Positions 135-21,561 of a DNA stretch of 64,000 bases are shown piece after piece. A program made the position numbers and the translations under genes. The notes beneath the pieces were generated by a model. It did no database searches and was not told the DNA's origin. It worked only from the letters and a program-made list of their open reading frames with translations. Positions within the stretch are counted from its first letter, which is position 1, and every line of letters starts with the position of its first letter. This stretch comes from an uncultured Holophagales bacterium (GTDB lineage: Bacteria; Acidobacteriota; Thermoanaerobaculia; Multivoradales; UBA5704), in contig CAWJGT010000023.1 of NCBI GenBank assembly GCA_963842525.1, forward strand, positions 160,001 through 224,000. Reading direction: 5' to 3'.

Positions 135-355
135 GCACGCGACTCGGCCGGGGAAACGACTTCAGGGGAAAAAGGTGGCGCTCGGCCGCCCCCTTTTGCG
201 CAGAAAGGTGGTGGCCGGCCGCCACCTTTTCGACCCCACGCACGTGCTCGGGCGAGCACGCGACTCGGCCGGGGGAAACGACTTCAGGGGAAAAAGGGTG
301 CGCTCAGCCGCGCCCTTTCGGGCTGAAAGGGTGCGCTCTACCGCGCCCTTTTCGA
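135..355. repeat. Composite REP/BIME-like repeat, two tandem units, each GCACGCGACTCGGCCGGGGAAACGACTTCAGGGGAAAAAGG followed by paired hairpins
   Basis: Units start at ~135 and ~256; a third close copy lies at ~9453-9555. Hairpins AAAGGGTGCG...CGCGCCCTTT are visible. Confidence 0.8.
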
Positions 356-357
356 CC

Positions 358-1653
358 TCACGCACGCGCCCGGGCGAGGGTGGCAGCGACTTCGCGGGCC
401 AGATCGGCGGTGGCGGTTTCGCGGCGGGCGGCTTCCTGGAAAACGAGGAGGGCGGCCAGGGCTTCGCGGGAGATGTCCAGGTCTCGGAAGACGGTCACTG
501 TCTCGTCGGCCAGGTGGCGGACTTCGGTGGCCTCCCCCTCTTCCATGTAGGAGATCGCCAGATCCAGGGCGGCGAGGGCGGCGTCGAAGGCGTTGCCGTC
601 GTCGAGGAACTTCTGGCGGACCTCGGCCAGGAGATCGCGGGCCCGGACTTGGTCTCCCAGGCCGGCGACGATGCGGCCCTCCACCCAATCCAGACGGACT
701 CGGTCGAGAGCGCTTCCGTGGGCTGCGGCTACCGCCTTCAGTTCTGGCAGAAGGTCGGCCGCCTCTTGATGTCGGCCGGCCTTCGACAGGCTGTCCACCA
801 GGTTGTGGCGAACACAGAGGACGAGACGCGGCTCCCGGGCCGGGTCTATGAGTCCGTTTGCCTTCCTCAAGGCCTCGATGGCGGCCTCAGGTTCGCCCAA
901 CTCGATGAGCGCTCCGGCTTTCAAGATGAGACTTCGGCCGGCGAGGTGCGGATCCCGGTGCTCGGGTTGGCCCTCCAGGAAGAGGGCCACGGCCTGGTCG
1001 AGCAGCTCGAAGGCTTCGGGAAAGCGGCGCTGCGCCACGCGAAGGGAGGCCTTCAGGTCCAGGAGGACAGGCTCGTAGCCGAGGGCGTCTTCGGAATCCT
1101 CGGTTCCCGCCTCCCACCAGGAGTCCGACATCTCGAAGCACCGCTCGCCTGCGGGCAGATCGCCCTGCACTCGGCGGGCGTTGCCGAGCCCGGCCCAGGC
1201 AAGGCTTCGGAGCTGGTAGACCCAGCGCTCCTCGAATAGCTCGCTGTCCGAGATCCTGTCCGCCACGTGGACGGCGAGGTCAGCGAGGTGGAGGGCCTCC
1301 GCCGGCTGCTCCGGCGCGGTCTGGCAGCTCCTGCGGACCAGCAGCTCGCAGAGACCCCAGCTCACGAAGCGCGGGTCGGCGTGGAGGCGGGCCAGGCGGT
1401 CCTCCGGATCGAGCGGCGCGAGCTCCTGCAGGAGCCGGGGGGCCTCGGCCTTGGACCGGGCGAGGGCCGCGTCGATTGGACCAAAAACAGGAGGGAGGGC
1501 GTTGGCCTGGTGAAGCTCGAGGAGCCAGCCGCCGACCTCTCTACAGCGGGGACAGAGGTCCAGCAGGTGGAAGAGTTGCTCATTCTGCTCCGCCGTCCGA
1601 TCCGTGGCGAGCAGACGCTCCAAAGCGGCGGCGTCGAGGTGCTTGTGCTCCAT
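358..1653 (-). CDS. TPR-like helical repeat protein with N-terminal zinc-knuckle (anti-sigma-like) motif, 431 aa
   Basis: ATG at 1653 after a GAGGAGG RBS, inside ORF 358..2088. N-terminus HLDAAALERLL...HLLDLCPRC; TPR-like helices AWAGLGNARRVQGDL and LGEPEAAIEALRKA. Confidence 0.75.
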   Translation of the reverse strand: MEHKHLDAAALERLLATDRTAEQNEQLFHLLDLCPRCREVGGWLLELHQANALPPVFGPIDAALARSKAEAPRLLQELAPLDPEDRLARLHADPRFVSWGLCELLVRRSCQTAPEQPAEALHLADLAVHVADRISDSELFEERWVYQLRSLAWAGLGNARRVQGDLPAGERCFEMSDSWWEAGTEDSEDALGYEPVLLDLKASLRVAQRRFPEAFELLDQAVALFLEGQPEHRDPHLAGRSLILKAGALIELGEPEAAIEALRKANGLIDPAREPRLVLCVRHNLVDSLSKAGRHQEAADLLPELKAVAAAHGSALDRVRLDWVEGRIVAGLGDQVRARDLLAEVRQKFLDDGNAFDAALAALDLAISYMEEGEATEVRHLADETVTVFRDLDISREALAALLVFQEAARRETATADLAREVAATLARARA

Positions 1654-1768
1654 GCGATCCCCTCCTCGGATTGTTCTCGGCGGAGAATAATAGCGTAGGT
1701 GCGGAACATCGAGAAGGCTGATGGCGAAAATGCGGGCCGGAAAACCGCCGCCCGGCCCGCAAGCACGC

Positions 1769-2050
1769 TCAAGGACGGCCGTTGGGATCGAGGATGGAGC
1801 CGTTTTCGCTGCCGGGCTCGGAGCTCGTGCTGGCGCCGCTCGACTCAAGGGCGGAGCCGGTCTCGCTCCAGATGGCGGAGAGGAAGCTCCAGAGCTGGGC
1901 GAAGAGGCCCGGGGTTGTCTGGGAGTGCTCGGAGGTTGAGTGGATGGTGTGGCCCAGGGGCAGGGCCTTGGCGTGGGCGGGGGCGAGGAGGATAAGGGCC
2001 AGCAGGGCGAGGGTGAGGATGAACAGGGGACGGGTGGGGTGTCGGGGCAT
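1769..2050 (-). CDS. Small secreted peptide precursor, 93 aa, ending in a GxxLDPNG motif
   Basis: MPRHPTRPLFILTLALLALILLAPAHA is a clear signal peptide with an AxA site, followed by an amphipathic LWSFLSAIW segment and two related motifs SETGSALESSG and SENGSILDPNG. GAGG precedes the ATG. Confidence 0.7.
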   Translation of the reverse strand: MPRHPTRPLFILTLALLALILLAPAHAKALPLGHTIHSTSEHSQTTPGLFAQLWSFLSAIWSETGSALESSGASTSSEPGSENGSILDPNGRP

Positions 2051-2119
2051 TTGGACCTCGTGAGGGCCGCCACGGCTGCGGCCGCCATGGCCGGAGGGGG
2101 CGAGGCCTTCAGGAGGAAG

Positions 2120-2530
2120 TGTGCGCTGCCCTACCTGGAACAGAGCTGAGATGTGGGGGACGGACACAGAGAGACTTCGGGCGGAGCTGCGAGAGGCCGG
2201 CGTGGCGGTAGGGCCGCAACTGCCCGCCTGGATGCGGGGGAGTGGCCGAGGGGCGAAGGGCACCCTTGGCGGGTGAGGGGCCTCACCCAGGAGCAGATAC
2301 ACTGGGAGCTGTAGATCGACCGGCGCCGTGGCGTCGAAGAGGGTGGCATGATCGGGCGGACCTGAGTGGGGGCCGGCGTGGCGGTAGGGGCCTCAACTGC
2401 CCGCCTAGAACTCCACGGAGGGCCGGAGGACACGGGAGCTTACCCCCGGGCCGGCTGCGATAGCCGCCCTCGGGAGGAAACGGGTGGCACGTATTCCGGG
2501 CGCACCTATCCCGGGCACCTATCCCGGGGT
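2120..2530. repeat. Dispersed intergenic repeat family (two partial units)
   Basis: CCCTACCTGGAxCAGAGCTG..GATG..GGGACGGACAC..GGGCGGAGCT..GGCCGGCGTG..CAACTGCCCGCCTGGA recurs at ~7650-7720 + 9295-9440 (split by the IS) and ~9570-9690. Confidence 0.8.
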
Positions 2531-2775
2531 GAGCGCGTGGAAACATGGAGTCCCGCGCTATCGTTCTTCGCCTCCCCCTGTCCTGCTAAACATCTGGTAT
2601 CATTGCAGTGCAGGGCAGTCTTTAGCAGGCGTTAAATTTGTCGCAGAGCCTGGAAGAAGGGCGCCGCAGAGTGCCCTCGGGTTCTGCGAAGCCTGCTGGA
2701 ATTGGGAGTACAGCATCAAGTGCGAAGAGGCTTAGGGGTAACCGGGTGCCACTCCCAGGGCCTTCGGACTGATCA

Positions 2776-3240
2776 TTGAGGAGACAATGCTTGTGCCCAG
2801 AGGACGCTGAAAAGTCTACCTCTCGAACAACTAGCGCAGGAGGTGTGGTTCTCAACCGCGAGGACCACGTTCTAGTTGTAAAGCAAAGAGATGATACTTG
2901 GTCCCTTCCCAAGGGCCATGTAGAACCAGGCGAAGATGTTCTCACCGCTGCACGCAGGGAGATTCTTGAAGAGACTGGATTACGCGAATTACTCTATATT
3001 GCGCCGTTGGGCTCGTACACTCGGCTGAAGAAATTCTCAAGCAGATACAACGGCCCAGAATTGAAAACCATCCATATGTTTCTATTTCGAACTCAAGAGG
3101 AAGAACGCCTGAGTCCGCACGACAAAGACAATCCTGAAGCGAAATGGGTCTCTAAAGAGCACGGTGGCCAAGCTTCTTTCCTACCAAGAGGACTGCGATT
3201 TCTTTCTTGGCATCGTCAGCGGAATCTAGGTACTTACTAG
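2776..3240 (+). CDS. Nudix hydrolase (Ap4A-hydrolase/MutT-like); probable frameshift near 3162, start uncertain
   Basis: SAGGVV...WSLPKGHVEPGEDVLTAARREILEETGL is a full Nudix box. Removing one G at ~3162 gives a typical C-terminus VAKLLSYQEDCDFFLGIVSGI ending at TAG ~3229. Confidence 0.88.
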   Translation: MRRQCLCPEDAEKSTSRTTSAGGVVLNREDHVLVVKQRDDTWSLPKGHVEPGEDVLTAARREILEETGLRELLYIAPLGSYTRLKKFSSRYNGPELKTIHMFLFRTQEEERLSPHDKDNPEAKWVSKEHGGQASFLPRGLRFLSWHRQRNLGTY

Positions 3241-3276
3241 ATACTTTATGCGAGACGCCGCTAGGAGAAACATTGA

Positions 3277-4248
3277 ATGAGTCGACTTATTATTGTAGGT
3301 GGTGCCTCTGGAGCTGGAAAATCATTTTTGCTACAAAACATTGCACTACTCGATCTCACTGTGGTAGTCGTTCGTAAATTGACAACAAGAAAGCCTCGGC
3401 CCTACGAAAGCGCTAGCGGACCGGTTGAAGATCTAGAACTCAGCACGCCGTTAGCGAGCGTCAAGCAATGCGACTATGTCTATCAATATGGCAAAGACTG
3501 GTACGGCGCGCGGCGGCAGGACATCAAACAGGTCCTCTTGGCGGGGAAAAACCCGATTCTCATAGTTCGAAACTGCAGGACTATACATAAGATTCTGCAC
3601 GATTTCCCAGGCGCACTGGTTGTCTATCTTCAATCTGGATTGAGCGGTGACGATCTCAAGGAAAAGCTTCTAGAACAGGGGCGTCAAGATATCGACATCG
3701 ACGAAAGGATGCGACGGAATCTGGCCGACTTTAACGAATATGTTCGTCACATCTACTTGTTTCGTCATGTCCTAATAAATTTTTTCGATGATCTTCTATT
3801 GGATCAAATGCAGGCTATCCTTCAGTATGAGATAACCGATGACGATATTTTGCCAGATTTCGTTTTTGTGTTGATGTCATTCAATCCCGATTTTACAAGT
3901 GTGTACAAAGCTATGTGCGCGGCGGGCATGCTGGTTAAAGGGCGGACCCTGCGCGTGGAGCGCATAGACGCAAAGCTCGGTGATTACAAGATAACAAATG
4001 AGGTGCTTCGCAGTATAAGAAGATCTGCACTTATTCTTTGCGAGGTCTCAGAGGAGCGACCCAATGTTTACTATGAACTTGGCTATGCCCGGGGGCTCGG
4101 AAAGACAGTAATTCCTTGCGCCAGAGCTGGAACAACTCTTCCCTTCGATGTCAAAGACTTTCGTACTATTTTCTACTCCGACCCAATCGATCTACAGGAA
4201 AAACTAGTGGCGGAGTTCATCGCCGCCTTCAACGGAAGTGAGAAATGA
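3277..4248 (+). CDS. Guanylate-kinase-like P-loop kinase fused to a nucleoside deoxyribosyltransferase/N-glycosidase-like (TIR-like flavodoxin fold) domain
   Basis: N-terminal GGASGAGKS Walker A, KLTTRKPRPYE and YQYGKDWYG GK motifs. C-terminal FVFVLMSF...IRRSALILCEVSEERPNVYYELGYARGLGK...LPFDV. Confidence 0.8.
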   Translation: MSRLIIVGGASGAGKSFLLQNIALLDLTVVVVRKLTTRKPRPYESASGPVEDLELSTPLASVKQCDYVYQYGKDWYGARRQDIKQVLLAGKNPILIVRNCRTIHKILHDFPGALVVYLQSGLSGDDLKEKLLEQGRQDIDIDERMRRNLADFNEYVRHIYLFRHVLINFFDDLLLDQMQAILQYEITDDDILPDFVFVLMSFNPDFTSVYKAMCAAGMLVKGRTLRVERIDAKLGDYKITNEVLRSIRRSALILCEVSEERPNVYYELGYARGLGKTVIPCARAGTTLPFDVKDFRTIFYSDPIDLQEKLVAEFIAAFNGSEK

Positions 4249-5582
4249 GGAATACAGCGCAAGGCTTTAGAGATCGCTTCGCTGATGCTCAGGCGTCGAT
4301 TATTATTCTTGGCACCAACCCCCTTATTCCATTTCTTGAAAGTAGCGCGCAATTTTTCGCAGATCTTCTGACTCTTCGAACAAAGCTCAGGCTGAGCATT
4401 CTCTACGAGAGCGACAGCGAGAACTTCAGCCAGTCTTTGTGTGTCGATACTCAGCACTCGGAGAACAGATTTTCATACGAGTCACTTCGAGTTCACAGAA
4501 ATAGAATAAGCGGGACAAAGAAAGAAGGTGAAGGTGGAATTTTTTTAGAGATTGGCGAGTGTTTGAGTGACGACATGCTGAGAAAAGCGGTCCTGAGACG
4601 CGTAACCCTTCGACAGGTCAACTTGAGGCTCCCGCTCAATATCATTTCGGTCGACAGCCGACTATGGTTCTGCGTAGTTACCAATTCCATGCCCGTTATA
4701 GAAGACTATATCGAAATTAAGAAAAATGATCCATTGTATCTGGTCGTTACTGATTTTCTTGATTTTTATACTGACCAGGGAAAAGGAGGGATATATCTTT
4801 CCCAGCCGAAGGAAGAGTTAATCCAGCTTTATGACAAGGAGGCCTACCCTAGGGGTATATTCCCGAGGGCCTGCTTCTACACAACCGAATTTCAGCGTTT
4901 CTCCATCTGGGGTTTCATCTTTAACCGAAGAGGGAAACTGTTGCTGCATAAGCGCAGCATGGCTACTAAAGACGGTCGCGGTCTATGGGATAAGTCAGTC
5001 GGAGGACATGTTGACTTGCTTGATTCGTCAACCTTCATCACGGCCCAACGCGAGTTGGTAGAGGAACTTTTCTTGCCCGAGGCGGAATATTCAAAGCATG
5101 TTCGTGCGGATCTCGGAGACATCATAAACTTTGGCGATTGGAATCCCACAAAACGACCTGAACGTGTATTCAAAAATGCCTTCGCCGGCCTTGGCGCCGC
5201 AGATTGGATTCAGTTTCGCGCAACAGATGGAAAGGGAGAGCCCCTTACGGTGACACGAGTTTCTAACCGAAGAATCCATAGGGACGACGGAAGCGTCAGG
5301 ATTAAAAAAACCGTGTTTAGGAGCGATGTATATTTGTTCATAGCTCCTCCGGAATACTTGGATACTGATGAGCAGATGCGACGGTTGCTCGAAATAGCCG
5401 AACAGAAAGGCGCGGCTTCGGATCACAGGTTGATATCCGTTGGTGACTTCAGGAAGTGGATCGACGATACCGAAAAGGAGGGAAAATCAGATGAAATCTT
5501 CACTGACGACCTGTTATTCATTAATGTTAGTCACCGCAACCTGCTGGAACAATTCGCAGAATTCGTAACGTTCATGTTTTAG
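4245..5582 (+). CDS. Uncharacterised N-terminal domain (possibly DUF5919/PLD-like fold) fused to an IPP-isomerase/YfcD-like Nudix domain
   Basis: ATGA overlap with the upstream gene. C-terminal half has ELIQLYD...IWGFIFNRRGKLLLHKRS...GLWDKSVGGHVD...TAQRELVEEL. Confidence 0.75.
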   Translation: MRNTAQGFRDRFADAQASIIILGTNPLIPFLESSAQFFADLLTLRTKLRLSILYESDSENFSQSLCVDTQHSENRFSYESLRVHRNRISGTKKEGEGGIFLEIGECLSDDMLRKAVLRRVTLRQVNLRLPLNIISVDSRLWFCVVTNSMPVIEDYIEIKKNDPLYLVVTDFLDFYTDQGKGGIYLSQPKEELIQLYDKEAYPRGIFPRACFYTTEFQRFSIWGFIFNRRGKLLLHKRSMATKDGRGLWDKSVGGHVDLLDSSTFITAQRELVEELFLPEAEYSKHVRADLGDIINFGDWNPTKRPERVFKNAFAGLGAADWIQFRATDGKGEPLTVTRVSNRRIHRDDGSVRIKKTVFRSDVYLFIAPPEYLDTDEQMRRLLEIAEQKGAASDHRLISVGDFRKWIDDTEKEGKSDEIFTDDLLFINVSHRNLLEQFAEFVTFMF

Positions 5583-5595
5583 GTGGAGGCAAGCT

Positions 5596-6972
5596 GTGAG
5601 TGGGTGCTTGTACATCCTAACGGGCGCGTCAGGGTGTGGAAAGACGACGCTCTTAAACAGCGTCTGTTCAGGGGCTCTGCAGAAGAAGTATTCAGCAGTT
5701 AAGGCTCCGAAGTACTCGGAACGATCATCGCGCGGGCCGGATGATGATATAGAAACTGTCGAGCGAGTGGAACTCGGGGCCTTCGATCTTGCCTATGTAA
5801 TCAATGGTATCCGATATGGAATACGCATCAGAGATATAGAGGTTCAGATTGAAGCAGGGAAAAACTCATTTATAATACTGAGCGACTTCCGAATTGTCCG
5901 ACGTCTGAAGGCTATGCTCCATCACCGAGCGAAGGCTATATATATAGCGTCCAGTGTTGATACAAGAAGAATTGAAGCCATTCAAGAGGCCCGGTACGGA
6001 TTCAATCCAGACCCCAAACAGCGAAAGCGACTTCAAGTTCAGTTCTCTAGACTGGAGAGCGCTGCTCGCCTCGGTTTATGGAGAAGCGTTTTTGAATGCA
6101 TGGGAGAGCTAGCCAATGACTGGCGAGAGTTTATTCCTGAGGCCAAGTCGACGGAGATCAGAGCGCAAAAGATCCGCGCATTTCATAACAGGTACATCGA
6201 TAACCTGCATCTTTTTGATCACGTTCTGTTGAATTACAACCAAGGTCACCCAGAGGAAATGACAGAGCAGTTGGTTAATATTTTGAAGTGTTCATCCACG
6301 AGAAGGCCCCGGATAAATAGCCGACCAGTTCTGTTTGTTGTAGCCGCTTCTTCGGGTGCAGGCAAAGGCACCCTAATGGAAACACTCAATATGATAGGGA
6401 GAGATCAGGTTGCGATCGTAACCAAAATGGCTCGACGCGACCCGAAGACAAATGACAGAAGAGATGGAATGGTGGCAATTGGGAAAGACGGAGTGTTTCC
6501 TGAAGTATTTGATATGCATTGGACCTTCCATGAGCCGATGCGAAAGCCCACGAAGCGGGGGCGTCGAGAATTAGTGGAGGCCGGAGATGGACAATCCGAC
6601 AGGAGAGAAATGGAGAAATATGCAGGTACGGAGTACGCGATAGGCACAAAGGAAGTGAGAGATAATTTTGAACGCGGGGTTCAGCAGATTGTTATTTCTA
6701 ACATGAAACAGTTCCCGCGATTCCGTGAGTTGTTTGGAGAAAAAGTTGTTTTCCTTTACCTTCATCGATTGGTTAGCGCAAAGGAAATCCGACGTTTTCA
6801 ACTCGAGAATTGCGAAACAAAGGATGAAGCACTCCAGAGGATATTCGAGATTCGCGAAGTACATAAAGATTATATGAAAAAGATAGCTGAGTTCAACCAT
6901 GTCCTTTTGAATACAGCTTATAGAGAAGATCTATTTGACCAGATGTTCCAACTAATTGATTTTTACCGATAA
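5596..6972 (+). CDS. Protein with two tandem guanylate-kinase-like domains
   Basis: Two Walker A motifs (LYILTGASGCGKTT; LFVVAASSGAGKGT), each followed by a degenerate GK segment (KYSERSSR; TKMARRDPK) and each ending in the GK-type strand FDHVLLN / FNHVLLN. RBS GGAGG, GTG start. Confidence 0.8.
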   Translation: MSGCLYILTGASGCGKTTLLNSVCSGALQKKYSAVKAPKYSERSSRGPDDDIETVERVELGAFDLAYVINGIRYGIRIRDIEVQIEAGKNSFIILSDFRIVRRLKAMLHHRAKAIYIASSVDTRRIEAIQEARYGFNPDPKQRKRLQVQFSRLESAARLGLWRSVFECMGELANDWREFIPEAKSTEIRAQKIRAFHNRYIDNLHLFDHVLLNYNQGHPEEMTEQLVNILKCSSTRRPRINSRPVLFVVAASSGAGKGTLMETLNMIGRDQVAIVTKMARRDPKTNDRRDGMVAIGKDGVFPEVFDMHWTFHEPMRKPTKRGRRELVEAGDGQSDRREMEKYAGTEYAIGTKEVRDNFERGVQQIVISNMKQFPRFRELFGEKVVFLYLHRLVSAKEIRRFQLENCETKDEALQRIFEIREVHKDYMKKIAEFNHVLLNTAYREDLFDQMFQLIDFYR

Positions 6973-7030
6973 CAGGAACCTTCTGAGTTTCGCGGGAGTC
7001 TTTTCTGGCATTGGAGAGCCGGCTATGCCT

Positions 7031-7091
7031 GGCCCCTCACCCTCGGGCCACCTCTCCCACTCGCACTCACACCCGCGCGGGAGAGGGGGCG
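7031..7091. repeat. CCCCTCACCC..CCTCTCCC..GGGAGAGGGG REP-like hairpin
   Basis: Related hairpins at ~34370-34421 and, inverted, at ~39866-39921; each lies just past a gene end. Confidence 0.55.
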
Positions 7092-7367
7092 CAAAGACCG
7101 CAAGGACGACTCCAAGGGGGCGGGTAGATGTGCGGTTGCTGCTGGATCGGCTGGTGTCGCGGACGCTGGAGGTATGACTGACGGCGCGGCCGGCGGGACA
7201 ATTCGTGCGTGCGGGCGCTGACCGCGGGGGTGGTGCGCGAGATCCTTTACTGACGGTGGGCAGAGGTGAAGGAGCCCTTGGAAGGGCGGCGGGGGGAGAA
7301 GGGTGGAAGTTGGCCGGCCGGCGGTGGAGACGGATATGGGAGGAGTTCGGTGAACTCGTGCCAAACG

Positions 7368-7541: not shown

Positions 7542-7849
7542 CCCCACCGACCAAGACACAGGACGGACGCGGACTGTGGCAGGGACAGGCACGGACGGCG
7601 GCTCGGCTGCGGGGCTTCGGTGCGCCGTGAGGTTTGGCCTTGGCCGCTCGGCCTGGCTTTGCCCTACCTGGAGCAGAGCTGGGATGCTGGGACGGATACG
7701 GAGGGTGCTCGGGCGGAGCTTCTATGTGGACCACCGGTGTCAAGCGTCTCAGGGTTGTTCGTCCTCCCCTCCTTTTTGGGTGGTTTCGCCGAGGGCTTCT
7801 GCATCGCGTTGGGGCGTTTGGTCTCCCTTTCAGTTTCTGGCGCTTGCCG

Positions 7850-8075
7850 GTGTGCCAGGACCTGGTCGTCCTTTCCAGCTTCTATCCGTGCTGACCTCAC
7901 CTTTGGGTCAGGCACCAAATGCAGCATGCGCTGCGAGCGACTCAGGCAAGCTTTAGGAGCGGCCCCATCTGAGGAAAACGGTTCGGAAGCCCGAACCAAG
8001 CTCCGCCCCGGGCACGCTCCACCAGTCTTTCTCGGAGACCTCCCCTCTTGTCCCTCCTTACCTGGAATTCTGTTC
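7850..8075 (-). ncRNA. Putative bridge RNA (seekRNA) of the IS110 element; exact ends unknown
   Basis: Two internal-loop structures. 7956-8020 carries guides matching the target flanks (GGGCGGAGCT; CTCAG). 7861-7946 carries a guide matching the donor junction (ATAGAAG). Confidence 0.8.
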
Positions 8076-8079
8076 CAGA

Positions 8080-9207
8080 CTACTTGGTCTTCAGCTCAGC
8101 ACCATCAGGAATCACTCCGTAGTCCAGATAGCGCCACAGCGCGATCAGCAGCTTGCGGGCCAGGGCCACGATCCCCACCCGCCGAGAACGGCGACTCCCA
8201 GGGCCATAGCGCTCCCGAAACCACAAGCTCAGGCGGCTCTGCGGTTGGAAGCGCAACCATCCCCAAGCGATCTCGATCGCCATCACCCGGATCCGGCGAT
8301 TCCCCGCCTTGCTGATCCCCTGTTCGATGTTGACCGTGTCACCACTCTGATAAGGCATCGGCGCCAGACCCGCCAAACCGGCCACCTCTCGACGGTTGCG
8401 GAACTGCCGCCAACCGAAGAATTCCACCACGAACAGCCAACCACTGCTGTCCCCAATCCCCTTGAGCTTTTGCAGCCGCTGCACCTTTTCCGTCGCTTCC
8501 ACTGTGGCCTTCTGGCGAAATCGTTCAACCGCTGCAATCTGACTCTCCAGAAGAGCCAGCCGCTCGCCCTCTCGCCTCAGACGCTCCCGCAAGCTCGAAA
8601 GCAGCCTCTCGCCGTTCCACTGCGTCGCCTGATCCAACTGCTGCAGGAAGCCCTTGCCGACCTTCACTCCCCGAGCCCCCACGCTGGCCAGCAGGCCCTT
8701 GATCCGATTCGTGTGGGCCGTCCGCTCCTGCTTCAGCGACTCAAGCTCCCGGGCCAGGTGACGCTCATCCTCCTGCTCGGGCGTCGGCGCGTGCGCCACC
8801 CCGAACACCTTCTTCTCCCCGCGCTCGTAACGGATCAACAATGACAGCAACTTCTCCACGTCCACCCCATCCGTCTTGGCCCGCCGATGCCGCCGATTCA
8901 CCTCGATGCTCGAGGAGTCCATGACGACGTTTTCCACTCCTTCCGACAGCAGGAACCGATGCAACCAGAACCCATCCCGCCCGGCCTCGTAGCAACTCAC
9001 CACCCGAGCCGACTCCGGCACGCCGAGGCGATGCTTGGCCCGAGCGATCTCCAGCATCAGCCCGTTCAGATCGCCGGCCGCAACCGTCCGCTGACTCGCC
9101 TTGCGTCCAGCCTCCACACCAAACCCCAGCCTCCACTCGCTGGCGCCGAGCTCCAGGGCCATGTGCAACACCGCCTCCGTTCGCGTAGACTCGGTCGTCT
9201 GGTTCAT
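8080..9207 (-). CDS. IS110-family transposase / bridge recombinase, 375 aa
   Basis: RuvC-like DEDD region ALELG...CYEAGRDGFWLHR...RRAKTDGVD; C-terminal KGIG...AGLAPMPYQSG...GISKAGNRRIR...VALARKL. AGGAG RBS before MNQTTEST. Confidence 0.95.
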   Translation of the reverse strand: MNQTTESTRTEAVLHMALELGASEWRLGFGVEAGRKASQRTVAAGDLNGLMLEIARAKHRLGVPESARVVSCYEAGRDGFWLHRFLLSEGVENVVMDSSSIEVNRRHRRAKTDGVDVEKLLSLLIRYERGEKKVFGVAHAPTPEQEDERHLARELESLKQERTAHTNRIKGLLASVGARGVKVGKGFLQQLDQATQWNGERLLSSLRERLRREGERLALLESQIAAVERFRQKATVEATEKVQRLQKLKGIGDSSGWLFVVEFFGWRQFRNRREVAGLAGLAPMPYQSGDTVNIEQGISKAGNRRIRVMAIEIAWGWLRFQPQSRLSLWFRERYGPGSRRSRRVGIVALARKLLIALWRYLDYGVIPDGAELKTK

Positions 9208-9294
9208 CGGGGTTCTCCTTTCTAACCCGTTAAAGTTCCCCGAAACATACAACCGGCGACCCGCTTTTGCATCCCCCCTCGCCCTGCATAGCAT

Positions 9295-9695
9295 CTGAGT
9301 GGGGGCCGGCGTAGCGATGCGGCTTCAACTGCCCGCCTGGAACTCCACGGAGGACCGGAGGCCACGGGAGCTTACGCTCGGGCCGGCAGCCCCTCCCGAG
9401 GAAACGGGTGGCACCTATTCCGGCAGCACCTATTCCGGCAGAACACGGACGGGCACGGCGACTCGGCCGGCCGGGAACGGCTTCAGGGGAAAAAGGGTGC
9501 GCTCTACCGCACCCTTTCGGGCTGAAAGGGGGCGCTCTACCGCACCCTTTTTCGAGGTGCCCTTGCCCCTCGGCTTGGCTTTGTCCTACCTGAAGTAGAG
9601 CTGAGATGCTGGGACGGACACGGAGGGCGCTCGGGCGGAGCTCAGGGTGGCCGGCGTGACGGCAGGGCCTCAACTGCCCGCCTGGATGCGGGTCT
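9295..9695. repeat. Composite repeat block (right half of the IS target repeat, hairpin unit, further repeat unit)
   Basis: 9295-9440 matches 2362-2525; 9453-9555 matches 256-355; 9570-9690 matches 2125-2237 and 7650-7720. Confidence 0.8.
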
Positions 9696-9728: not shown

Positions 9729-11783
9729 CTACTCCAGAAGGCTCTTGAGGAGGGCATCCCTTGCATCCACGTAGAACTGGATGCTCAGCTTGGCGGCCAT
9801 TTCGTCGGAGAGGTCCATGAGCTGCTTGCGCGCGGAGATGGAGACCAGGAGGGCTGAGGCCCCCTTCTCCACGGCCAACTCGGCGATGTTGACGGCGCCG
9901 TGGACTGGATCGATGGAGCCGCCGAGGTTGAGCTGGCCGACTACGATGAGTCCTCCTTTTACGTTTTTCTGGAGAAGAGCGCTGCAGAGCGCCAACAAGG
10001 CTGCCAGGCCGGTGGCGTTTCCACTTTTGGCGGTGTCGAAGGCTCGGAGCTGCACGGAGAACTCGTGAGAGCGGGGGTCACGGTCTCCCACCAGTTCCTT
10101 GGCGCGTGAGTAGAGGTTCTGCTCGGCGTACTTCACGCTCTCCCGGAAGGATGGCGGGGTGGGTGCATTCAAGATCCTGACTCCGGAGCCGGCTCCGACG
10201 GTGACGTCGATCCTGAAGAGACCGACCGGATCGTTGGCTCCGCCTGGGCTGATTGTCCAGATCTGACCCGGAGGCAGTGGATCGGGTCCGATCTCGTTCT
10301 CGCTCTGGAGCTCTGGGGTCGCCACGAACTTTTCGACGCCTTCCGTCCCGAGGTGATAGCTGAAGTGGGTGTTGCGGAACTCGGCCGAGCCGATCCGCTT
10401 TTGCTGCTCCTTGACGCGGCGCCGACACTCCAGGGCAAGTCGCACCGCCCACTCAAGGTCCTCGTCTGAGACCTGGGACTCTGGATTCGGAAAGACGAGC
10501 TTGAGCAGGCCGGTGACGGTCTTCTGAACGGCTGTGATGTCGCGGCCACTCAATGCCCCTCCCCAAAAGACGCGGTTTTGGAGAACACTTCCACGCCCTT
10601 GCATACGCACGCGGTGCCAACACTCGGAGAGGAAATCGCTCACGAGCCCGAAGTGGTTGGTGAAATGTTCCAGCGGGGAGAGCTTCGGAACGTCCCATCC
10701 GGCGAGATAGGCGTGGATCCGGTCCATGAAGGCGGTGTCGTTCCGCATCTCTGGAGGCAGGGGGCCGAGGAGGTGGCCGATCCGCTGTTGGTGCTCCACG
10801 TCCACGTCGAAGTTGCCGACCATGACGATGCCGCCGTCGGCGCGGATGCTCTCTTTTCCGCGGCTGAACTCGCCGGACTCCATGTAGCCCTTCATGATGT
10901 TGACGCCGTCCTTCTGGTCGAAGGAGACGCCGGAGACCTCGTCGAAGCAGACGACGTCGTACTGGCAGACGAGGCCCCGCTGGCCGGTCGCGTTGTTGAC
11001 GAACATCCGGGCCACCGTCGCCTTGCCGCCGGAGATGAGGTGGGCGTACGGCGAAACCTGCTGGAAGAGGTGGCTCTTGCCGGTGCCACGGGGGCCAAGC
11101 TCGACCATGTTGTAGTTGCGCTCGACGAACGGGACCATGCGCAGGAGCATTATGTCCTGCGCCCGGGGCGTGAGCGCTTCGGGCTCGAGGCCGATGCTGC
11201 GGAGCAGGAACCGCTTCCATTCCTCTGTGGAGAACAGCTCTCGGCCGCGGTAGAGTGGCTCCAAGATCTCGCGCTTGCAGAGCTGGATTTCGCGCAAGCT
11301 GACGACGCCGAATGGCCGGCCGTTCTTCTCCTGGGCGATGGCGGCGTCGTACTCGAGCTCCACCTCGGCGTAGAAGCCGCCGGTGAGCATGCGCTCGTTC
11401 TCGCTCACCAGCCGGCTGTCGATCCGCACGTCGTTGAGCTGCAGGCTCGGAAGGGTGACCAGGTAGGAATCGGTCTTGGCATCGAGCCGTGTCTGGACGA
11501 TGTCGATGATCTTGACCGATCCCTCTTCACGCGCACGGGCTTTGAACAGCTCCTCCTCGCCTGCACGGACCGTACGGTTTGAGAGCTGCCGCTCGACGAT
11601 CTGAAGACCTTCCTGGATCTCCTCTTCGTCGGTGCTGGCGCAGTAGCGGCCGAGCAGGAACTCCACGACGTAGGTCGGGACCGGATACTGGGCCTTGAAT
11701 TTGCGCACCAGGTCTTTGCGAACCACAAAGCCCTCGAAGGCCGTGGCCGCAAGCTGGTCGATGCCATCGAGCACGAAGATCAT
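9729..11783 (-). CDS. brxL: BREX Lon-related AAA+ protein BrxL
   Basis: YPVPTYVVEFLLGRYCA; MVPFVERNYNMVELGPRGTGKSH Walker A; YDVVCFDEV; IMKGYMESGEFSRG; DTAFMDRIH; C-terminal Lon-protease-like domain. Overlaps the pglZ stop. Confidence 0.92.
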   Translation of the reverse strand: MIFVLDGIDQLAATAFEGFVVRKDLVRKFKAQYPVPTYVVEFLLGRYCASTDEEEIQEGLQIVERQLSNRTVRAGEEELFKARAREEGSVKIIDIVQTRLDAKTDSYLVTLPSLQLNDVRIDSRLVSENERMLTGGFYAEVELEYDAAIAQEKNGRPFGVVSLREIQLCKREILEPLYRGRELFSTEEWKRFLLRSIGLEPEALTPRAQDIMLLRMVPFVERNYNMVELGPRGTGKSHLFQQVSPYAHLISGGKATVARMFVNNATGQRGLVCQYDVVCFDEVSGVSFDQKDGVNIMKGYMESGEFSRGKESIRADGGIVMVGNFDVDVEHQQRIGHLLGPLPPEMRNDTAFMDRIHAYLAGWDVPKLSPLEHFTNHFGLVSDFLSECWHRVRMQGRGSVLQNRVFWGGALSGRDITAVQKTVTGLLKLVFPNPESQVSDEDLEWAVRLALECRRRVKEQQKRIGSAEFRNTHFSYHLGTEGVEKFVATPELQSENEIGPDPLPPGQIWTISPGGANDPVGLFRIDVTVGAGSGVRILNAPTPPSFRESVKYAEQNLYSRAKELVGDRDPRSHEFSVQLRAFDTAKSGNATGLAALLALCSALLQKNVKGGLIVVGQLNLGGSIDPVHGAVNIAELAVEKGASALLVSISARKQLMDLSDEMAAKLSIQFYVDARDALLKSLLE

Positions 11784-14170
11784 TCTTCTTCACCTACGAC
11801 AGTATTTTTCCGGGCCACGACGCGGCCCTGAGGGTCCAACAAGACCACGGTCGCCGCGGTTCCTTCGTCATCCGGATTCTCCACGACGAGGGAGCTTTCT
11901 CCTTCAGCACTGACGGGTTTGGGCTGCGCATCCTTGGCAAGGGAACTCGCCGGGTCAGCGGCTTTGGTACGTAGGTCCACCTGCCAATCAGTTCCGGAGG
12001 ACACAACCTGGATGCGGCAACGCAACCCGAGCCACCGGACAGAGACCACGGCCGGCGGCGGGCCGGCCGGCTGGGCAGCGCGCACCACGAAGCCCGGCAC
12101 GACGCACTCCTGCAAGCTTAGACTGCCGTGGGAGTATTCGATTCCCCCGCGGAAGCTGCCGATTCCAGGCGCGAGCGCGATCCGTATGTCGGGATTCCAG
12201 TGCCATGGAGCTGTCGGGAGATCGACCTTCGATCCTGGCTTGAGGATTCCGCAGCGCGTCCATTGGGTTTCTACCAGGTAATGGGGCATTTCCACTTTCG
12301 GGAGATTTCCCGGAACGAGGAGCCAACCATGGTCCGTGACCACGCGGACCTCACGCCAGCCCGCCTCAAGGAGGCACCTGATGCGGTCCACGAGGCCGGC
12401 GATTTCTTCGGAAATGCGGCCCGCGAGCTTCGCCCCCTCTTTGTGCCCTCGCCGGTCAATTTCTCCGCATTCGGTCCATGCACGGCCTGTGGGGTCGCCG
12501 GTATCGTCACCGCGCAAATCCTGAAAGCCTCGCTCGGTCAGGAGCTTGCGGAAGCGCTCGCTGGTCAGCGGCTGGCCCGTGGCGCGGACCAAGGGGCGGA
12601 ACGGATCGCCGTCGATTCCCTCTCCGGTGACGAGATCGGCCACGGGTGAGGCCGCAGGCTTGGCCGTGGGAGTGACCGGAGGCAGGGGAACCCAGCGCCA
12701 GCTCTCTTCGACGAGCAAGCCGTCTGACTCCAGGGCTGTGCGCAAGCGTTTGCCGACATCGAGGCGTAAGCCGTCCGCAAAGACGATGCAGGTTCCCGGC
12801 TCGATCGCAGCCAGCTCCCGAGGTGTCGCGCCCTGGATGTCCCGAGGGTTCTCGCGAACGAGATCCTGGAAGCGCTCGGCTCCCGCTTCAAGCCATGGAT
12901 TGTAGACAGCTTGGACCGCGGTCTTGACGGCGGCCAGATCCGCAGCACTGGCGACCCCTGCGAGAGCGTCGAGAACCGCGGCGTCAGCCCGCCAGCCCTC
13001 GGCCACGTAGGCCCTAGCCATGGCGGGCGCATCCTCGCCTCCGAGCTTCGTCCGTGTCGCACGGGCCAGAAGGGACAGAGGCTCGAGTACCCTTGCGAGC
13101 GGTGCCTGCTCCAGCTTTGCCCAGACCCATCCGCGGCGCTCACCGTGCATCGACTCGAGCTTCTCGATCTCAGTGGCGGCGGCATCCGGCGGGAGCGAGC
13201 CGAGGCGCTCCAGGGTGCTCCGCAGCTCGGCCTCGGCCCTTTCGTTGCATTGGGGCCAGCACTCGCGCTTGAAAAACAGGGAGTCCTCGTCTTTCGGTTT
13301 CGCGCGGCGCATAAGCACCGTCAAGTTCGGGTAAGCCTTCGGCGCCTCCTCGAACCGTGACCACACCAGATCCCACTTCTTGTCCCGCGTTCCCAGACTT
13401 TCCGCCGCCACCAGCTCTCCGTCTTTTTCGGGATCGAAGTGGTAACGCTCCCGGCAAGCATCGCGGAATACCTGCCACTCCTCGGTCGTCCAGCCCTGGC
13501 GCGTCGCCGCGGGCGCATTGAGCCAGCGGAGGAGCTGTTTCACGTGGTCCGGATGGAGGAGGGCGTGGAAGTCGGCCGCGTAGAGAGGGCGCACGCGCAG
13601 CTCTGCCACGGGGGTGTCGGCGAGCTTGGCGAGAGCATGAAGAATGGATTCCCGCGTGGTGGGGTCGCTTACCACGTCGAGCTCAAGCCCGCCGCGCTTG
13701 GAGCTGAGGAAGCCGGAGACGGTCCAGTCCTTCGTATTCTCCTGGGTAAACCACACTCCCCGGTATTGCAGTTCTGCCAGGGGTTGGAGCTCTCGCGGGC
13801 ATTCCTCGACTGCACGAAGCTCTTGCCGACTGACTCCCGGGAGGTACAGGATAGGAACCACTTGCTCGGGCCAGTCCGCCTCTGGAAGCGTGCGCGCGAG
13901 CATGCACTTGAGCCAGATCGCAGGTCCCGTCCGCTCACGCGGTGCATAGGTGCCGAGCGTCAGCAGTTCCGGGAGAGCTTCGCGCAGCCGGTACGCGAGT
14001 GGCTCCCACTGGCGGTCCTTATCCGTCCAGAGGATGACATCTGGCCGAGTCTGATCCTGTGCGTTGTACTCGCTGGCTCGCCGGAGCGCCCGCACCAACT
14101 CGAAGAGAACCGTGCCCTCGCGTAGGTTTGTGGGCTCGCGCTGCGGCGCCGCTGCGGTACTTTTGGCCAT
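11780..14170 (-). CDS. pglZ: BREX PglZ alkaline-phosphatase-like protein (type B-like)
   Basis: ILWTDKDRQW, GPAIWLKC, LYLPGVSR, LAELQYRG; PglZ domain VFADGLRLD, PPVTPTAK, VVTDHGWLL, YSHGSLSLQEC. Confidence 0.92.
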   Translation of the reverse strand: MAKSTAAAPQREPTNLREGTVLFELVRALRRASEYNAQDQTRPDVILWTDKDRQWEPLAYRLREALPELLTLGTYAPRERTGPAIWLKCMLARTLPEADWPEQVVPILYLPGVSRQELRAVEECPRELQPLAELQYRGVWFTQENTKDWTVSGFLSSKRGGLELDVVSDPTTRESILHALAKLADTPVAELRVRPLYAADFHALLHPDHVKQLLRWLNAPAATRQGWTTEEWQVFRDACRERYHFDPEKDGELVAAESLGTRDKKWDLVWSRFEEAPKAYPNLTVLMRRAKPKDEDSLFFKRECWPQCNERAEAELRSTLERLGSLPPDAAATEIEKLESMHGERRGWVWAKLEQAPLARVLEPLSLLARATRTKLGGEDAPAMARAYVAEGWRADAAVLDALAGVASAADLAAVKTAVQAVYNPWLEAGAERFQDLVRENPRDIQGATPRELAAIEPGTCIVFADGLRLDVGKRLRTALESDGLLVEESWRWVPLPPVTPTAKPAASPVADLVTGEGIDGDPFRPLVRATGQPLTSERFRKLLTERGFQDLRGDDTGDPTGRAWTECGEIDRRGHKEGAKLAGRISEEIAGLVDRIRCLLEAGWREVRVVTDHGWLLVPGNLPKVEMPHYLVETQWTRCGILKPGSKVDLPTAPWHWNPDIRIALAPGIGSFRGGIEYSHGSLSLQECVVPGFVVRAAQPAGPPPAVVSVRWLGLRCRIQVVSSGTDWQVDLRTKAADPASSLAKDAQPKPVSAEGESSLVVENPDDEGTAATVVLLDPQGRVVARKNTVVGEEE

Positions 14171-17100: not shown

Positions 17101-17536
17101 AAAATCGCGGGCAGCATCCGGGCCGCGAAACGAGCGGCCAAAGTCCATCCGTTCTCCACGCCAGCCTCGGCCGCGAGCTCCTCGCATTCAGCGAGCGTCA
17201 CGGGCACTTCGTGATCGGGGTGGATGAGGAGTTGATTCTCGGCCAAGAAGCGGGCAAAGAGCATCCGGTGCCAGTGTTCGTAGGCACATTCTGAAACCAG
17301 GTGCCCGATCTCCTGTTCGCCGTTCGCCTTGCGGGAGTCACCGAGTTGGCGCGCATGGGCTCGGAGATGGGTCCGGAGCTCTCGATCTCCGCCGGAGTCA
17401 TGGTGGCGAACGGCTCGGCAAGCCCGACGGCCAAGCGCTGGAGCGACGCGCGGGCGCCCTCTTCTGCCTCGTCACGGGCCTTAACCACCGTGTTTTCGAG
17501 CCGGCTTCTGAGTGATTCCGGAAGTGATGACATCAA
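14171..17536 (-). CDS. pglX: BREX adenine methyltransferase PglX, split by two frameshifts (~17385, ~14790)
   Basis: Joined from ORFs 17198-17536, 14778-17264 and 14171-14977: AYEHWHRMLFARFLAEN, ELPAVTQLFTEPYMV, LDPCCGSGHFL (motif I), ITNVPYLGRG (motif IV), PFIWHIWDG, GWDPDLNDGVR. Confidence 0.92.
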
Positions 17537-17549
17537 GCCTGTCCTCTTG

Positions 17550-20500: not shown

Positions 20501-21009
20501 GCGTAGTCTTCCGGCAGGCCGGCCGAGCGGAAGATGAGCCCGAGGAGAGCGAGGCGCACGCTGCCTCCGGCCCCGGCCCCCAACTTGCCGCCGGCGGCAT
20601 GGAGGCCGCCGAGCCGCTTGCCCTGGGTGGACAGCTCCCGGAGCTGGGCATGGATGTCGTCGGGAAGATGATAGGCGAGGCCACGGGCGGTGGCGCCGTC
20701 CTGGAACCGATAGTCCGTCCACAGGAAGCGCAGCATCTTCACGAGGTGGGACTTGCCGCTCCCGTAGAAGCCGCTCACCCAGACCGCCGGCTGCTCCTCC
20801 CGGTCGAGGCTCGCGAGGTAGGTCGAGAGGATGCGTTCGAGGCCCTGGGCGTACTGCCCCTCGCACACGAAGGTTTGGAGCTCATGGCGAAGGGTGCGGA
20901 TCTCCTGCTCCGAGCCCGGCTCCGCGACCTCGACGACGCCGTTGTTGACGAGCCGGTTCTCAAGCGGATCCTTGAGGAAGACATCCCGGTTCTTGATGTG
21001 CTGCGTCAT
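17550..21009 (-). CDS. brxC: BREX P-loop ATPase BrxC, frameshift at ~19764
   Basis: MTQHIKNRDVFLKDP...FVCEGQY...WVSGFYGSGKSHLVKML (Walker A), LIVLDEVQQYIG (Walker B), YPLLPTRRRFWE; continues in ORF 17550-19919 with FEAPPYGWPQDAIDG. Confidence 0.92.
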
Positions 21010-21561
21010 GCGCTCTCCAAGCCGCCGGCCGCCGTGATGGGCACCGCATGGTAGTTCCAGCCATCTCGAGCGTCGAGAAGGCGATAGGTGTTGTCCTGGT
21101 ACTCGCCGGGGAAGAAAACGAGGAGGCGGCCCGGAATGGAATTCTGGACCATCTCCATCAGCCTCGCCACCTTCATGAATCCGAAGAGCGCGGCCACGCC
21201 TGTCACGGCGACGACTGTGCAGCTCGTCCGTCTCCTCCAGGACCCGCAGGACCTCGCCGGCCACGGCCGCCTCGAAGTCGGGATGAGGGATCAGGAGCTT
21301 CTGGGGAGACTTGAAGTAGGCCTCGCGGTATTCCTGCTGGGCCATCCAGCGGGCAAAGGCGCCGATCAGGTCGCAGGATCGCCAGCCGTGGCCAGCCTCT
21401 TTCGTGGCGATCTCGAAGCTGGTCAGGTGCAGGCGGAGCCGGCGCTCGTCGGCGGGGTCGTAGACGGCGAACCAGACGCGCTGCTGTCCTGGCAGCGACC
21501 GGTCCCAGGGGAGGGAGACGTACCGGGTGTAGCTCGCGCGCAGTGCTTCAAGTCGATTCAC
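21006..21561 (-). CDS. brxB: BREX BrxB-like (DUF1788) protein, frameshift at ~21222
   Basis: VSLPWDRSL..QRVWFAVYDPADERRLR joined to GVAALFGF...GRLLVFFPGEYQDNTYRLLDARDGWNYHAVPIT; lies between the brxA-like gene and brxC. Confidence 0.85.

Follow-up and report, generated by a model that had tools for sequence, protein, structure and literature searches.

A mobile Nudix and guanylate kinase-fold cassette in a Holophagales genome: a candidate nucleotide- or NAD-centred conflict system

Nucleotide-processing genes that lie next to a phage defence locus raise the question of whether they serve metabolism, defence or a mobile element. Such genes are found in a 64,000-nucleotide stretch of DNA from an uncultured Holophagales bacterium (GenBank assembly GCA_963842525.1, contig CAWJGT010000023.1, positions 160,001 to 224,000; hereafter the window), where four co-oriented, closely packed open reading frames (ORFs), g1 to g4, span positions 2776-6972 on the plus strand (Table 1). 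An earlier note, made from the letters alone, had described four tightly packed genes with two Nudix, three guanylate kinase (GK)-like and one N-glycosidase-like domain and had proposed a candidate new defence system. The packing is borne out by the ORF calls and by direct inspection of the sequence: g2 and g3 share an ATGA stop/start overlap at 4245-4248, and g3 and g4 are separated by a 13-bp spacer (5583-5595) with a Shine-Dalgarno-like run, GGTGGAGG. Profile searches return the same domain tally (two Nudix, three GK-like, one NDT-like). The proposal of a new system holds as to the modular layout and the lack of a named match; the unit itself has to be redrawn, as the conserved part is g3 with g4 and g2 appears to be one swappable effector. 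On balance, and with modest confidence, we regard the cassette as part of a horizontally mobile conflict system, so far undescribed, that centres on nucleotides or NAD and whose most likely role is anti-phage defence.

The conserved core and its domains

Searches with g3 found 206 relatives in a collection of 5.8 billion proteins, mostly metagenome proteins of 430-460 aa, and a profile search of 1.84 billion representatives gave 85 clusters at E <= 1e-30, a number that rises to 147 at E <= 1e-10. A scan of one genome for each of 185,579 species yielded 94 matches, from which 80 loci (L001-L080) were kept. Thirty-three of the 80 (L048-L080) match only the Nudix core (approximately g3 179-292); most belong to Acidobacteriota, and as unrelated Nudix genes they were excluded, so that all tallies use L001-L047. 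Gene order was evaluated by tblastn and domain mapping in the 42 loci whose g3 homologue is followed by 1500 nt or more of sequence. Same-strand GK-like domains follow g3 in most of them (at least one in 38/42, at least two in 37/42), the gap to the first being -58 to +53 nt in 34 of the 38 loci and 276-699 nt in the other four. These domains are either fused, as in g4, or encoded by two genes of ~200 aa, and the core genes often have overlapping stop and start codons. (ORF calling missed g3 in L012 and GK ORFs in L045 and L046, all of which are revealed by tblastn.) The order g3 then GK occurs in Acidobacteriota, Planctomycetota, Bacteroidota, Chloroflexota, Pseudomonadota, Bacillota, Verrucomicrobiota and a Thorarchaeota metagenome-assembled genome (MAG); the exceptions are three archaeal loci (L006, L007 and L010) and L046. 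Judged from gene order, the conserved unit is g3 plus two GK-fold domains (g4, fused or split) in a fixed order. A test of gene-order conservation among homologues, suggested in the earlier note, thus came out in favour of the core, which is kept in 38 of the 42 evaluable loci. What does not extend to the family is the unit of four genes: g2-type genes (GK + NDT-like) are present in 13 of the 47 loci, up- or downstream of the core, and g1 has a counterpart only in L001, making it an accessory gene. As a metagenome proxy, the longest contigs of g3-family and g4-family clusters are of identical size in 56 of the 119 g3 clusters listed, and those of g3- and g2-family clusters in 21 of the 119.

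The three archaeal exceptions are from Methanosarcina/Methanobacteriota. They encode full-length g3 homologues (44-50% identity), two of which adjoin an AI-2E family transporter gene, and g3 may have a stand-alone role in these loci.

L001, from an Acidobacteriota MAG, contains all four genes, with 56-75% protein identity to those of the window, and the DNA homology between the two is confined to the four genes. Both cassettes are low-GC islands. As the earlier note had said of base composition, the window cassette is more AT-rich than its flanks (GC of 0.43-0.49 over 2751-7000, or ~47%, vs 0.62-0.71 on either side), and that of L001 has 44-50% GC within DNA of 63-68% GC. Positions ~2300-7000 have no DNA match elsewhere in the same 9.95-Mb genome or in 20 relatives. 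These comparisons mark the four-gene cassette as foreign, horizontally mobile DNA. No match was found for g3 or g4 in 50,697 phage records or for g3 in 72,556 plasmids, and no relative was confirmed in IMG/VR contigs.

The g3 protein is predicted to consist of an N-terminal domain, here called Xn, and a C-terminal Nudix domain similar to isopentenyl diphosphate (IPP) isomerase (IDI) and YfcD. The latter has the conserved domain PF00293 (E-value: 6.2e-7; residues 220-279; 29.9 bits vs a cut-off of 21.1). Its Nudix box has one additional residue and a Phe at the last Gly position, and R269, E270, E273 and E274 (REx2EE) are invariant in 42/42 aligned sequences. In the predicted model of g3 (mean predicted local distance difference test score [pLDDT] of 91), residues 186-445 are most similar to E. 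coli IPP isomerase (1hx3_A; VIA Z 18.1, root-mean-square deviation [rmsd] 2.4, 171 aligned) and also resemble YfcD (2fkb_A; VIA Z 15.0, rmsd 2.5, 161 aligned). The score against the IPP isomerase equivalog NF002995 is 24.4 bits, below its cut-off of 127. The motif WDKSxGGH of g3 includes an invariant Gly253, which lies at what we take to be the position of the catalytic Cys of IDI (WxNSxCxHP-type motif). Residues 1-188 (Xn) match residues 131-264 of TrmBL2 (5bpd_A; VIA Z 9.6, rmsd 3.3, 128 aligned), and Foldseek gives weak matches to the PLD fold (7e0m_A, prob 0.80; 9fhk_B, prob 0.60). The domain is tentatively modelled as a PLD/TrmB-like fold; no HxK...D motif is present in the g3 family alignment. 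In the ESM Atlas, Xn matches unnamed clusters only, all below 0.9, with DUF5919 on 15% of one cluster.

The g4 protein consists of two GK-like halves. GKa has a canonical Walker A motif (GASGCGKT) and matches both PhnN (TIGR02322, E-value: 2e-9) and guanylate kinases of the PDB (E-values down to 5.3e-10). GKb matches TIGR03263 (E-value: 2.8e-8; g4 scores 33.6 bits, under the Gmk cut-off of 160.45), and its Walker A motif in 29 aligned GKb domains is GxxGxGK followed by G, A or D in place of S/T. Invariant residues include G15, K16, R43 and R46 of GKa and K257 and R281 of GKb. The Walker A Lys and the Arg residues of the nucleoside monophosphate (NMP) site are kept in all three GK domains of the cassette, and the N-terminal part of g2 and both halves of g4 are assigned, the g4 halves from sequence, to the class of GK-fold P-loop kinases, with GKb as an exception at Walker A.

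The N-terminal domain of g2, GKe, has an intact Walker A motif (GASGAGKS) and the NMP-site Arg/Tyr. It matches TIGR03263 (E-value: 6.3e-12; 45.5 bits, well under the Gmk equivalog cut-off of 160.45), PF00625 (E-value: 8.3e-5; 22.8 bits, below the cut-off of 25.2) and guanylate kinase in a PDB profile search (E-value: 4.5e-14). In the predicted model of g2 (mean pLDDT 89), GKe is most similar to 2qor_A (VIA Z 19.4, rmsd 2.6, 179 aligned) and matches E. coli Gmk in Foldseek (E-value: 5.5e-11, 25% identity). K15, R38 and R144 are invariant in the family alignment.

The C-terminal domain of g2 is predicted to be NDT/DNPH1/MilB-like. Its match to PF05014 falls below the cut-off (E-value: 8.5e-4; 19.9 vs 28.8 bits), and ~50 residues align in profile matches to NDT (6qai, 8.6e-6), Rcl (2.9e-5) and DNPH1 (4.3e-5). 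Weaker profile matches, with E-values ranging to 0.11, are to the CMP N-glycosidase 4jen (0.005), ThsB (0.007), MilB and Cap12. Glu267, an invariant residue in the motif NVYYELGYA, corresponds in the alignment to the YELG Glu of Rcl/DNPH1, presumably the catalytic nucleophile of the NDT/DNPH1/MilB family. Fold matches have Z values of 12.1-13.9 overall, among them MilB (VIA Z 13.9, rmsd 3.4, 129 aligned) and NDT (Z 13.6). The PADLOC model 'Effector TIR' (PDLC00733) also matches this domain (E-value: 2.7e-12), at profile positions 289-363 of 388 only; no Pfam TIR model is listed for g2 at E <= 1. In two related proteins of ~314-323 aa, P0214 and P0225, a true TIR_2 domain precedes an NDT-like domain with 45-48% identity to that of g2, an architecture that may lie behind the PADLOC model. 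Because these proteins carry a separate TIR_2 N-terminal to it, the g2 C-terminal domain is probably distinct from TIR. The enzyme activity of the GK-NDT-like fusion, on NAD+ or (d)NMPs, may be a new one.

The remaining gene, g1, encodes a MutT-like Nudix protein (PF00293, E-value: 1.6e-22; 80.4 bits vs a gathering cut-off of 21.1) that is 56% identical to its L001 homologue and matches the PADLOC single-gene candidate PDC-S07 (E-value: 1.3e-7). The frameshift that the earlier note had implied is real. Frame 0 aligns with the L001 homologue to approximately nt 3159 and the homologous C-terminus lies in frame +1, with a stop at 3227-3229; frame-wise alignment scores are 31 and 50, with 14 for the third frame.

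Exchangeable partners and a proposed model

The core is repeatedly joined to other domains. In ten loci, the protein encoded immediately upstream of g3 has an N-terminal half that belongs to GT4-conflict (PF20706, E-value: 1.5e-75), SIR2_2 (E-value: 2.3e-20; ThsA-like in PADLOC) or TIR_2 (E-value: 1.5e-9). At least one of these partner domains has been noticed before, because its Pfam family is already named 'GT4-conflict'. The GT4, SIR2 and TIR proteins have a common soluble C-domain of ~150-200 aa that is homologous to Xn (hhalign 87.5%, E-value: 3.6e-6, 151 columns). A PADLOC match of this C-domain to 'TIR-TM' (E-value: 4.2e-33) had made it a candidate membrane anchor, which was rejected as the region contains no hydrophobic segment. 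Relatives of g3 are themselves fused to TPR, to a Ser/Thr kinase, to a STAND NTPase + TPR or to a CAP12/Pycsar-type TIR (E-value: 3.9e-28). From these recurrent fusions, Xn is predicted to be a shared adaptor or sensor module. GKe is likewise fused to different domains: NDT-like (g2 and 12 other loci), a deaminase (PF00383, E-value: 2.9e-12; L027), a CHAT protease (P0209) and unassigned domains. In L012, a Ser/Thr protein kinase domain is joined to a GK-cluster protein.

Two Anaerolineae loci encode a caspase (Peptidase_C14) + PNP_UDP_1 + STAND ATPase protein (L014:2594-5719, L013:2559-4220) directly upstream of a STAND-TPR-Xn-Nudix protein. In three Clostridia/Christensenella loci, a conserved protein of 467-485 aa, with no Pfam or PADLOC match, is encoded between GKb and a further GK-cluster gene (L026:12802-14259, L029:12844-14247, L031:12831-14264).

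Beyond these partners the surroundings vary. The neighbour scan covered 194 non-core ORFs of at least 180 aa from 44 loci, the near-duplicates L009, L037 and L046 having been removed. Keeping the two nearest ORFs per side and any within the core gave 134, and leaving out 15 (L001:8423, L001:15536, L004:8865, L006:6324, L013:2559, L014:2594, L024:7012, L026:6766, L026:12802, L026:15486, L029:12844, L029:16169, L031:12831, L035:6324 and L036:3191; six of them scanned singly) gave 119. None of the Pfam families among the 119 occurs more than three times, the commonest including resolvase, recombinase and integrase. PADLOC matches of neighbours include mads components, AriA, AbiLi, a type III methyltransferase, SoFic and PDC-S41. 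The earlier note had asked whether relatives sit in salvage or antibiotic clusters; the layout found is instead modular and effector-swapping, with no conserved flanks.

A conflict system is suggested because a fixed core is combined with Xn and GKe handles that carry changing immune effectors, because STAND-TPR fusions occur and because conserved flanks are absent. The patchy cross-domain distribution, the foreign base composition and the absence from the viral collections searched point the same way. In kind, the cassette looks like a modular nucleotide/NAD-targeting defence whose core (Xn-Nudix + two GK-fold kinases) would be unprecedented. Because the recurrent partners cleave NAD (TIR, SIR2, CAP12-TIR), chemistry on NAD+/ADP-ribose is no less likely than chemistry on dNMPs. 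The mechanism offered in the earlier note, in which a phage-modified dNMP is the trigger and a nucleotide pool is then destroyed, is possible and not specifically favoured.

The proposed model for such a system is as follows. Upon infection, the kinase pair and the Nudix domain would make and turn over a phosphorylated nucleotide or sugar-phosphate. The products of Nudix enzymes (NMP, ribose phosphates) are natural substrates of GK/PhnN-fold kinases, so the core could make or reset a phosphorylated nucleotide-like molecule; alternatively, its output might be an ATP-consuming cycle. Xn and GKe would pass the signal to the effector through ligand binding or like-with-like domain contacts, Xn carrying TIR, SIR2, CAP12-type TIR or GT4 and GKe carrying NDT-like, deaminase or CHAT domains. 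The effector would then cleave the N-glycosidic bond of NAD+ or a (d)NMP, draining an essential pool and aborting phage growth. In the window, the output would be g2 (GKe-NDT-like), with g1 as an extra Nudix and the NDT-like effector of retron Ec86 as a precedent. The biochemical steps and the defence role are all inferred.

A more specific version, which we consider unlikely, would have GKa and GKb as the signal generators. Stepwise phosphorylation of a Nudix-derived nucleotide or sugar-phosphate would produce a new second messenger, read by Xn and a catalytically retired GKe to switch on the effectors, and the Nudix domain of g3 would reset the signal. If this were true, CD-NTases, cyclases and TIRs would be joined as defence signal synthases by a fourth family, the NMP-kinase-fold enzymes. 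If the role is defence, the core would have no counterpart among described systems, and kinase-driven nucleotide chemistry would be a new element of immunity in bacteria and archaea. The family has few members and clear limits, and a natural experiment comes with it, one core being wired to partners of the TIR, SIR2, NDT-like, deaminase, CHAT, glycosyltransferase and STAND-TPR kinds. Xn and the effector-linked GK domain appear to be reusable modules and could be used to find more systems.

Known systems and competing explanations

The earlier note knew of no named system with this composition, and a PADLOC run agrees: PADLOC-DB v2.0.0 (2023 models) has no model for the core, with no family matching g3 at E <= 1 and P-loop-local matches only for g4 (mad3, E-value: 7.9e-6, 56 residues). 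NCBIfam has no equivalog for the cassette proteins. Sporadic SLOG-guanylate kinase fusions in phages are described in the available portion of PMC9503650, which contains no description of a GK + Nudix module; the same is true of the corresponding portion of PMC7159879.

Several described systems share parts of the cassette. Retron Ec86 (Eco1) has an NDT-like defence effector, and the g2 C-terminal domain has the same core motif with a Glu at the catalytic position. Released from the retron, the Ec86 effector is reported to deplete NAD+, according to the review PMC13276650. Unlike in the retron, g2 links its NDT-like domain to a GK fold, and a Nudix protein and two kinases are its partners; there is no reverse transcriptase among the four ORFs of the island, and Rfam detects no structured RNA that could be msr/msd.

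The anti-phage dCTP deaminase/AvcD, as Tal and Hsueh are said to have described in 2022, combines a P-loop kinase-like domain with a cytidine deaminase. The cassette likewise has a P-loop kinase-like domain with a nucleotide-degrading domain, and the g2 paralogue of L027 is a GK + dCMP/cytidine deaminase fusion. The same review classes dCTP deaminase as a nucleotide-pool defence (PMC13276650). The cassette differs in that g2 has an N-glycosidase-like domain and a multi-gene setting, and a dCTP-deaminase model is not among the PADLOC matches listed for g2 or the L027 protein.

CBASS, Pycsar, Thoeris and type III CRISPR (CAAD-Nudix) resemble the family in having an enzyme core with swappable effectors (TIR, SIR2) that share a sensor or adaptor domain. 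The core described here has no cyclase, CD-NTase, TIR signal generator or Cas10, and to our knowledge GK-fold kinases and Nudix enzymes are not signal generators in any described system. In type III CRISPR, Nudix acts downstream of CAAD, as stated in the review PMC13276650. Some g3 relatives resemble STAND/Avs systems in forming the C-terminal part of STAND NTPase + TPR proteins of 1058-1175 aa, the place that effector domains take in Avs-like proteins; the window g3 has no STAND or TPR, and the two kinase genes that follow g3 have no place in Avs.

Likeness to housekeeping enzymes is one of fold. DNPH1/Rcl, MilB and NDT are the best profile matches of the g2 C-terminal domain and share its fold and YELG Glu, but PF05014 is below its cut-off, the alignment is short and the TIR fold matches equally. 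Gmk, PhnN, IPP isomerase and YfcD have the same folds as the kinase domains and g3; their equivalog cut-offs are far from being reached, and g3 retains the hydrolase REx2EE and not the IDI Cys.

A number of observations weigh against a defence system with a novel core. The fold call for Xn comes from one VIA match (Z 9.6) and weak Foldseek matches to PLD, and the fold of the g2 C-terminal domain ties with TIR domains, MilB and deoxyribosyltransferases at Z 13.3-13.9. GKb, with no Ser/Thr in its Walker A motif, might be inactive. The three archaeal loci contain a g3 homologue and no GK genes, so that g3 can stand alone. The prediction of a g3-g4 complex scored 0.48 (best control 0.00), with at least 96% contact agreement between runs and a partner pLDDT of at least 83. 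Of 80 solved complexes, 58 reached the mark used, as did 2 of 110 mismatched pairs; only seven of the solved complexes, and both passing mismatches, did so with scores of 0.60 or lower. The prediction speaks for contact between g3 and g4, as weak support. Many neighbours are ordinary metabolic genes, and the PADLOC summary of neighbours, which counts families and does not state how many neighbours or loci have a match, carries no claim of enrichment. The window copy is possibly decaying, with g1 frameshifted and pglX and brxC of the adjacent BREX locus split. Lastly, the literature searched describes no GK + Nudix system, with earlier mention in surveys of nucleotide-centred systems being possible.

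The alternative that fares best, while still improbable in our estimate, is a pool-restoring or counter-counter-defence module that does not itself kill. The Nudix and kinases would process ADP-ribose or other breakdown products of NADases, either recycling them for the host or taking away the ADP-ribose required by phage NAD+ reconstitution, so that depletion by TIR, SIR2 or NDT-like partners becomes irreversible. The repeated coupling of the core to NAD-cleaving domains (TIR, SIR2, CAP12-TIR, NDT-like) fits such a role, as do the likeness of GKa to PhnN, a ribose-bisphosphate kinase family (2e-9), and two neighbours that are NrtR-type Nudix regulators. Phage pathways that rebuild NAD+ exist, as reported in 10.1101/2024.02.11.579819 and PMC13464706. 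Many loci, however, have the core and no recognisable NADase, and the deaminase and CHAT protease partners are unrelated to NAD+.

Second in rank, and also improbable, is an operon of metabolic function (salvage of nucleotides or nucleosides, sanitation, or biosynthesis of a nucleoside-type secondary metabolite), with an N-glycosidase, kinases and Nudix enzymes acting in series like the MilB/BlsM-type hydrolases of nucleoside-antibiotic clusters. All domains of the cassette are classical small-molecule nucleotide enzymes, the g2 C-terminal domain is as close to MilB as to anything (Z 13.9; profile match to 4jen, 0.005) and some neighbours are metabolic genes. What speaks against metabolism is that no biosynthetic or transport neighbour is conserved among the 119, that the distribution is patchy across phyla with the cassette in a low-GC island, and that fusions to or proximity of TIR, SIR2, CAP12-TIR, CHAT, caspase, STAND-TPR and GT4 would make no sense in biosynthesis.

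Still more doubtful is a selfish addiction or toxin-antitoxin-like cargo of a mobile element, with an N-glycosidase or kinase as toxin, a Nudix as antidote and no dedicated anti-phage role. A Nudix reversing the kinase product would be a plausible antidote, the island lies between insertion sequence (IS) elements, other loci have resolvase, recombinase and integrase neighbours, and the family is rare (the 85 clusters noted above). Against this, it was not found on the 72,556 plasmids or in the phage and viral collections, and simple addiction modules do not typically comprise three to five genes with STAND/TPR sensors. An inert, decaying remnant in this genome, perhaps of a family functional elsewhere, is equally doubtful: the frameshifted g1, the neighbouring pglX and brxC in two ORFs each and the crowd of IS elements would fit it, but g2, g3 and g4 are full length with every invariant family residue, and g1 lies outside the conserved core with a frameshift that could be an assembly error.

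The island and its surroundings

Table 1. Positions of the cassette, its domains and the flanking features in the window
Feature	Position	Strand	Basis or remark
g1	2776-3240	+	TTG start, 154 aa
g2	3277-4248	+	323 aa
g2 N-terminal GKe: GK-fold P-loop domain	3277-3858	+	TIGR03263, PDB profile, fold
g2 C-terminal NDT/DNPH1/MilB-like domain (TIR-related fold), predicted N-glycosidase effector	3859-4248	+	profiles, fold
g3	4245-5582	+	445 aa
g3 N-terminal Xn: PLD/TrmB-effector-domain-like, no HKD motif	4245-4808	+	fold, hhalign
g3 C-terminal IDI/YfcD-like Nudix	4809-5582	+	fold, PF00293, invariant columns
g4	5596-6972	+	GTG start, 458 aa
g4 N-terminal half GKa: GK/PhnN-like, expanded helical insert	5596-6300	+	TIGR02322, PDB profiles
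g4 C-terminal half GKb: GK-like, atypical Walker A	6301-6972	+	TIGR03263, 29-domain alignment
Terminator-like hairpin + T-run directly 3' of the g4 stop	6980-6998	+	consensus match only
Apparently horizontally acquired low-GC island (~47%) with four genes	2580-7000		composition; no DNA match in relatives
Left flank multi-copy element, ~2 kb	249-2275		85-91% identical copies, contigs C25, C4 and C3
Right flank IS110-family insertion sequence	7664-9346	-	transposase 8080-9294, at least 10 genome copies
Type 1 BREX locus, outside the system	9729-22363	-	PADLOC: BrxL, PglZ, PglX, BrxC, BrxB, BrxA

The earlier note had the island bounded by repeats and an integrase relic. A direct repeat (2127-2188 and 7660-7720, 81-88% identity) does bracket it, and belongs to a family with at least five copies in the window; because this short repeat is multi-copy, it is no proof of an attachment site. 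The supposed integrase relic is an intact transposase gene (8080-9294, minus strand) of a multi-copy IS110-family element (PF02371, E-value: 1.2e-16; PF01548). A 99% identical copy of this element lies in the same orientation 1.5 kb before the start of the window (G000:C23:156767-158449), and the two bracket a segment of ~9.2 kb that holds the cassette. At least eight more copies, 76-88% identical, are found elsewhere in the genome. The left flank element has further copies of 71-79% identity in genomes of the same genus and contains a long ORF (358-2088, minus strand) with sub-threshold TPR matches only; possibly it is a mobile element of no known class, or else a gene family that has expanded. 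At the right edge of the island lies a short repeat resembling repetitive extragenic palindromic sequences (7013-7097, palindromic core 7062-7091), with dozens of copies (~80-93% identical) in genomes of the same genus and family.

Counts of promoter and terminator consensus sites in the region do not exceed those of shuffled sequence. Rfam detects no structured RNA at E <= 1 in the island and upstream except one chance-level leader match (E-value: 0.37), and no tRNA genes were found in the window.

BrxL (9729-11783, minus strand) is encoded 2757 bp from the end of g4, which accords with the distance of under 3 kb given in the earlier note, and PADLOC confirms the BREX genes, up to BrxA at 21548-22363. 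The IS110 element lies between the cassette and brxL. Brx/Pgl models are absent from the 25 PADLOC families listed of the 140 matched by the 119 neighbour proteins of the 44 loci. On this comparison, BREX adjacency is peculiar to the window locus and the cassette is not a BREX accessory.

Two genes of the BREX locus are split on the minus strand. PglX is divided between 14778-17264 (profile positions 90-913) and 14171-14977 (positions 915-1121), and BrxC between 19738-21561, which also has a BrxB match, and 17550-19919; the splits could be frameshifts, phase variation or assembly errors. With BREX and further defence-like genes beyond it, the window looks like a defence island. One such gene (23682-25058, plus strand) encodes a 458-aa protein with a C-terminal TIR-like match (Aga_TIR-PNTD, E-value: 3.4e-7), and another (26400-29957, plus strand) encodes an 1185-aa protein that matches the HEAT-ARM effector model of type XIII retrons (E-value: 7e-20).

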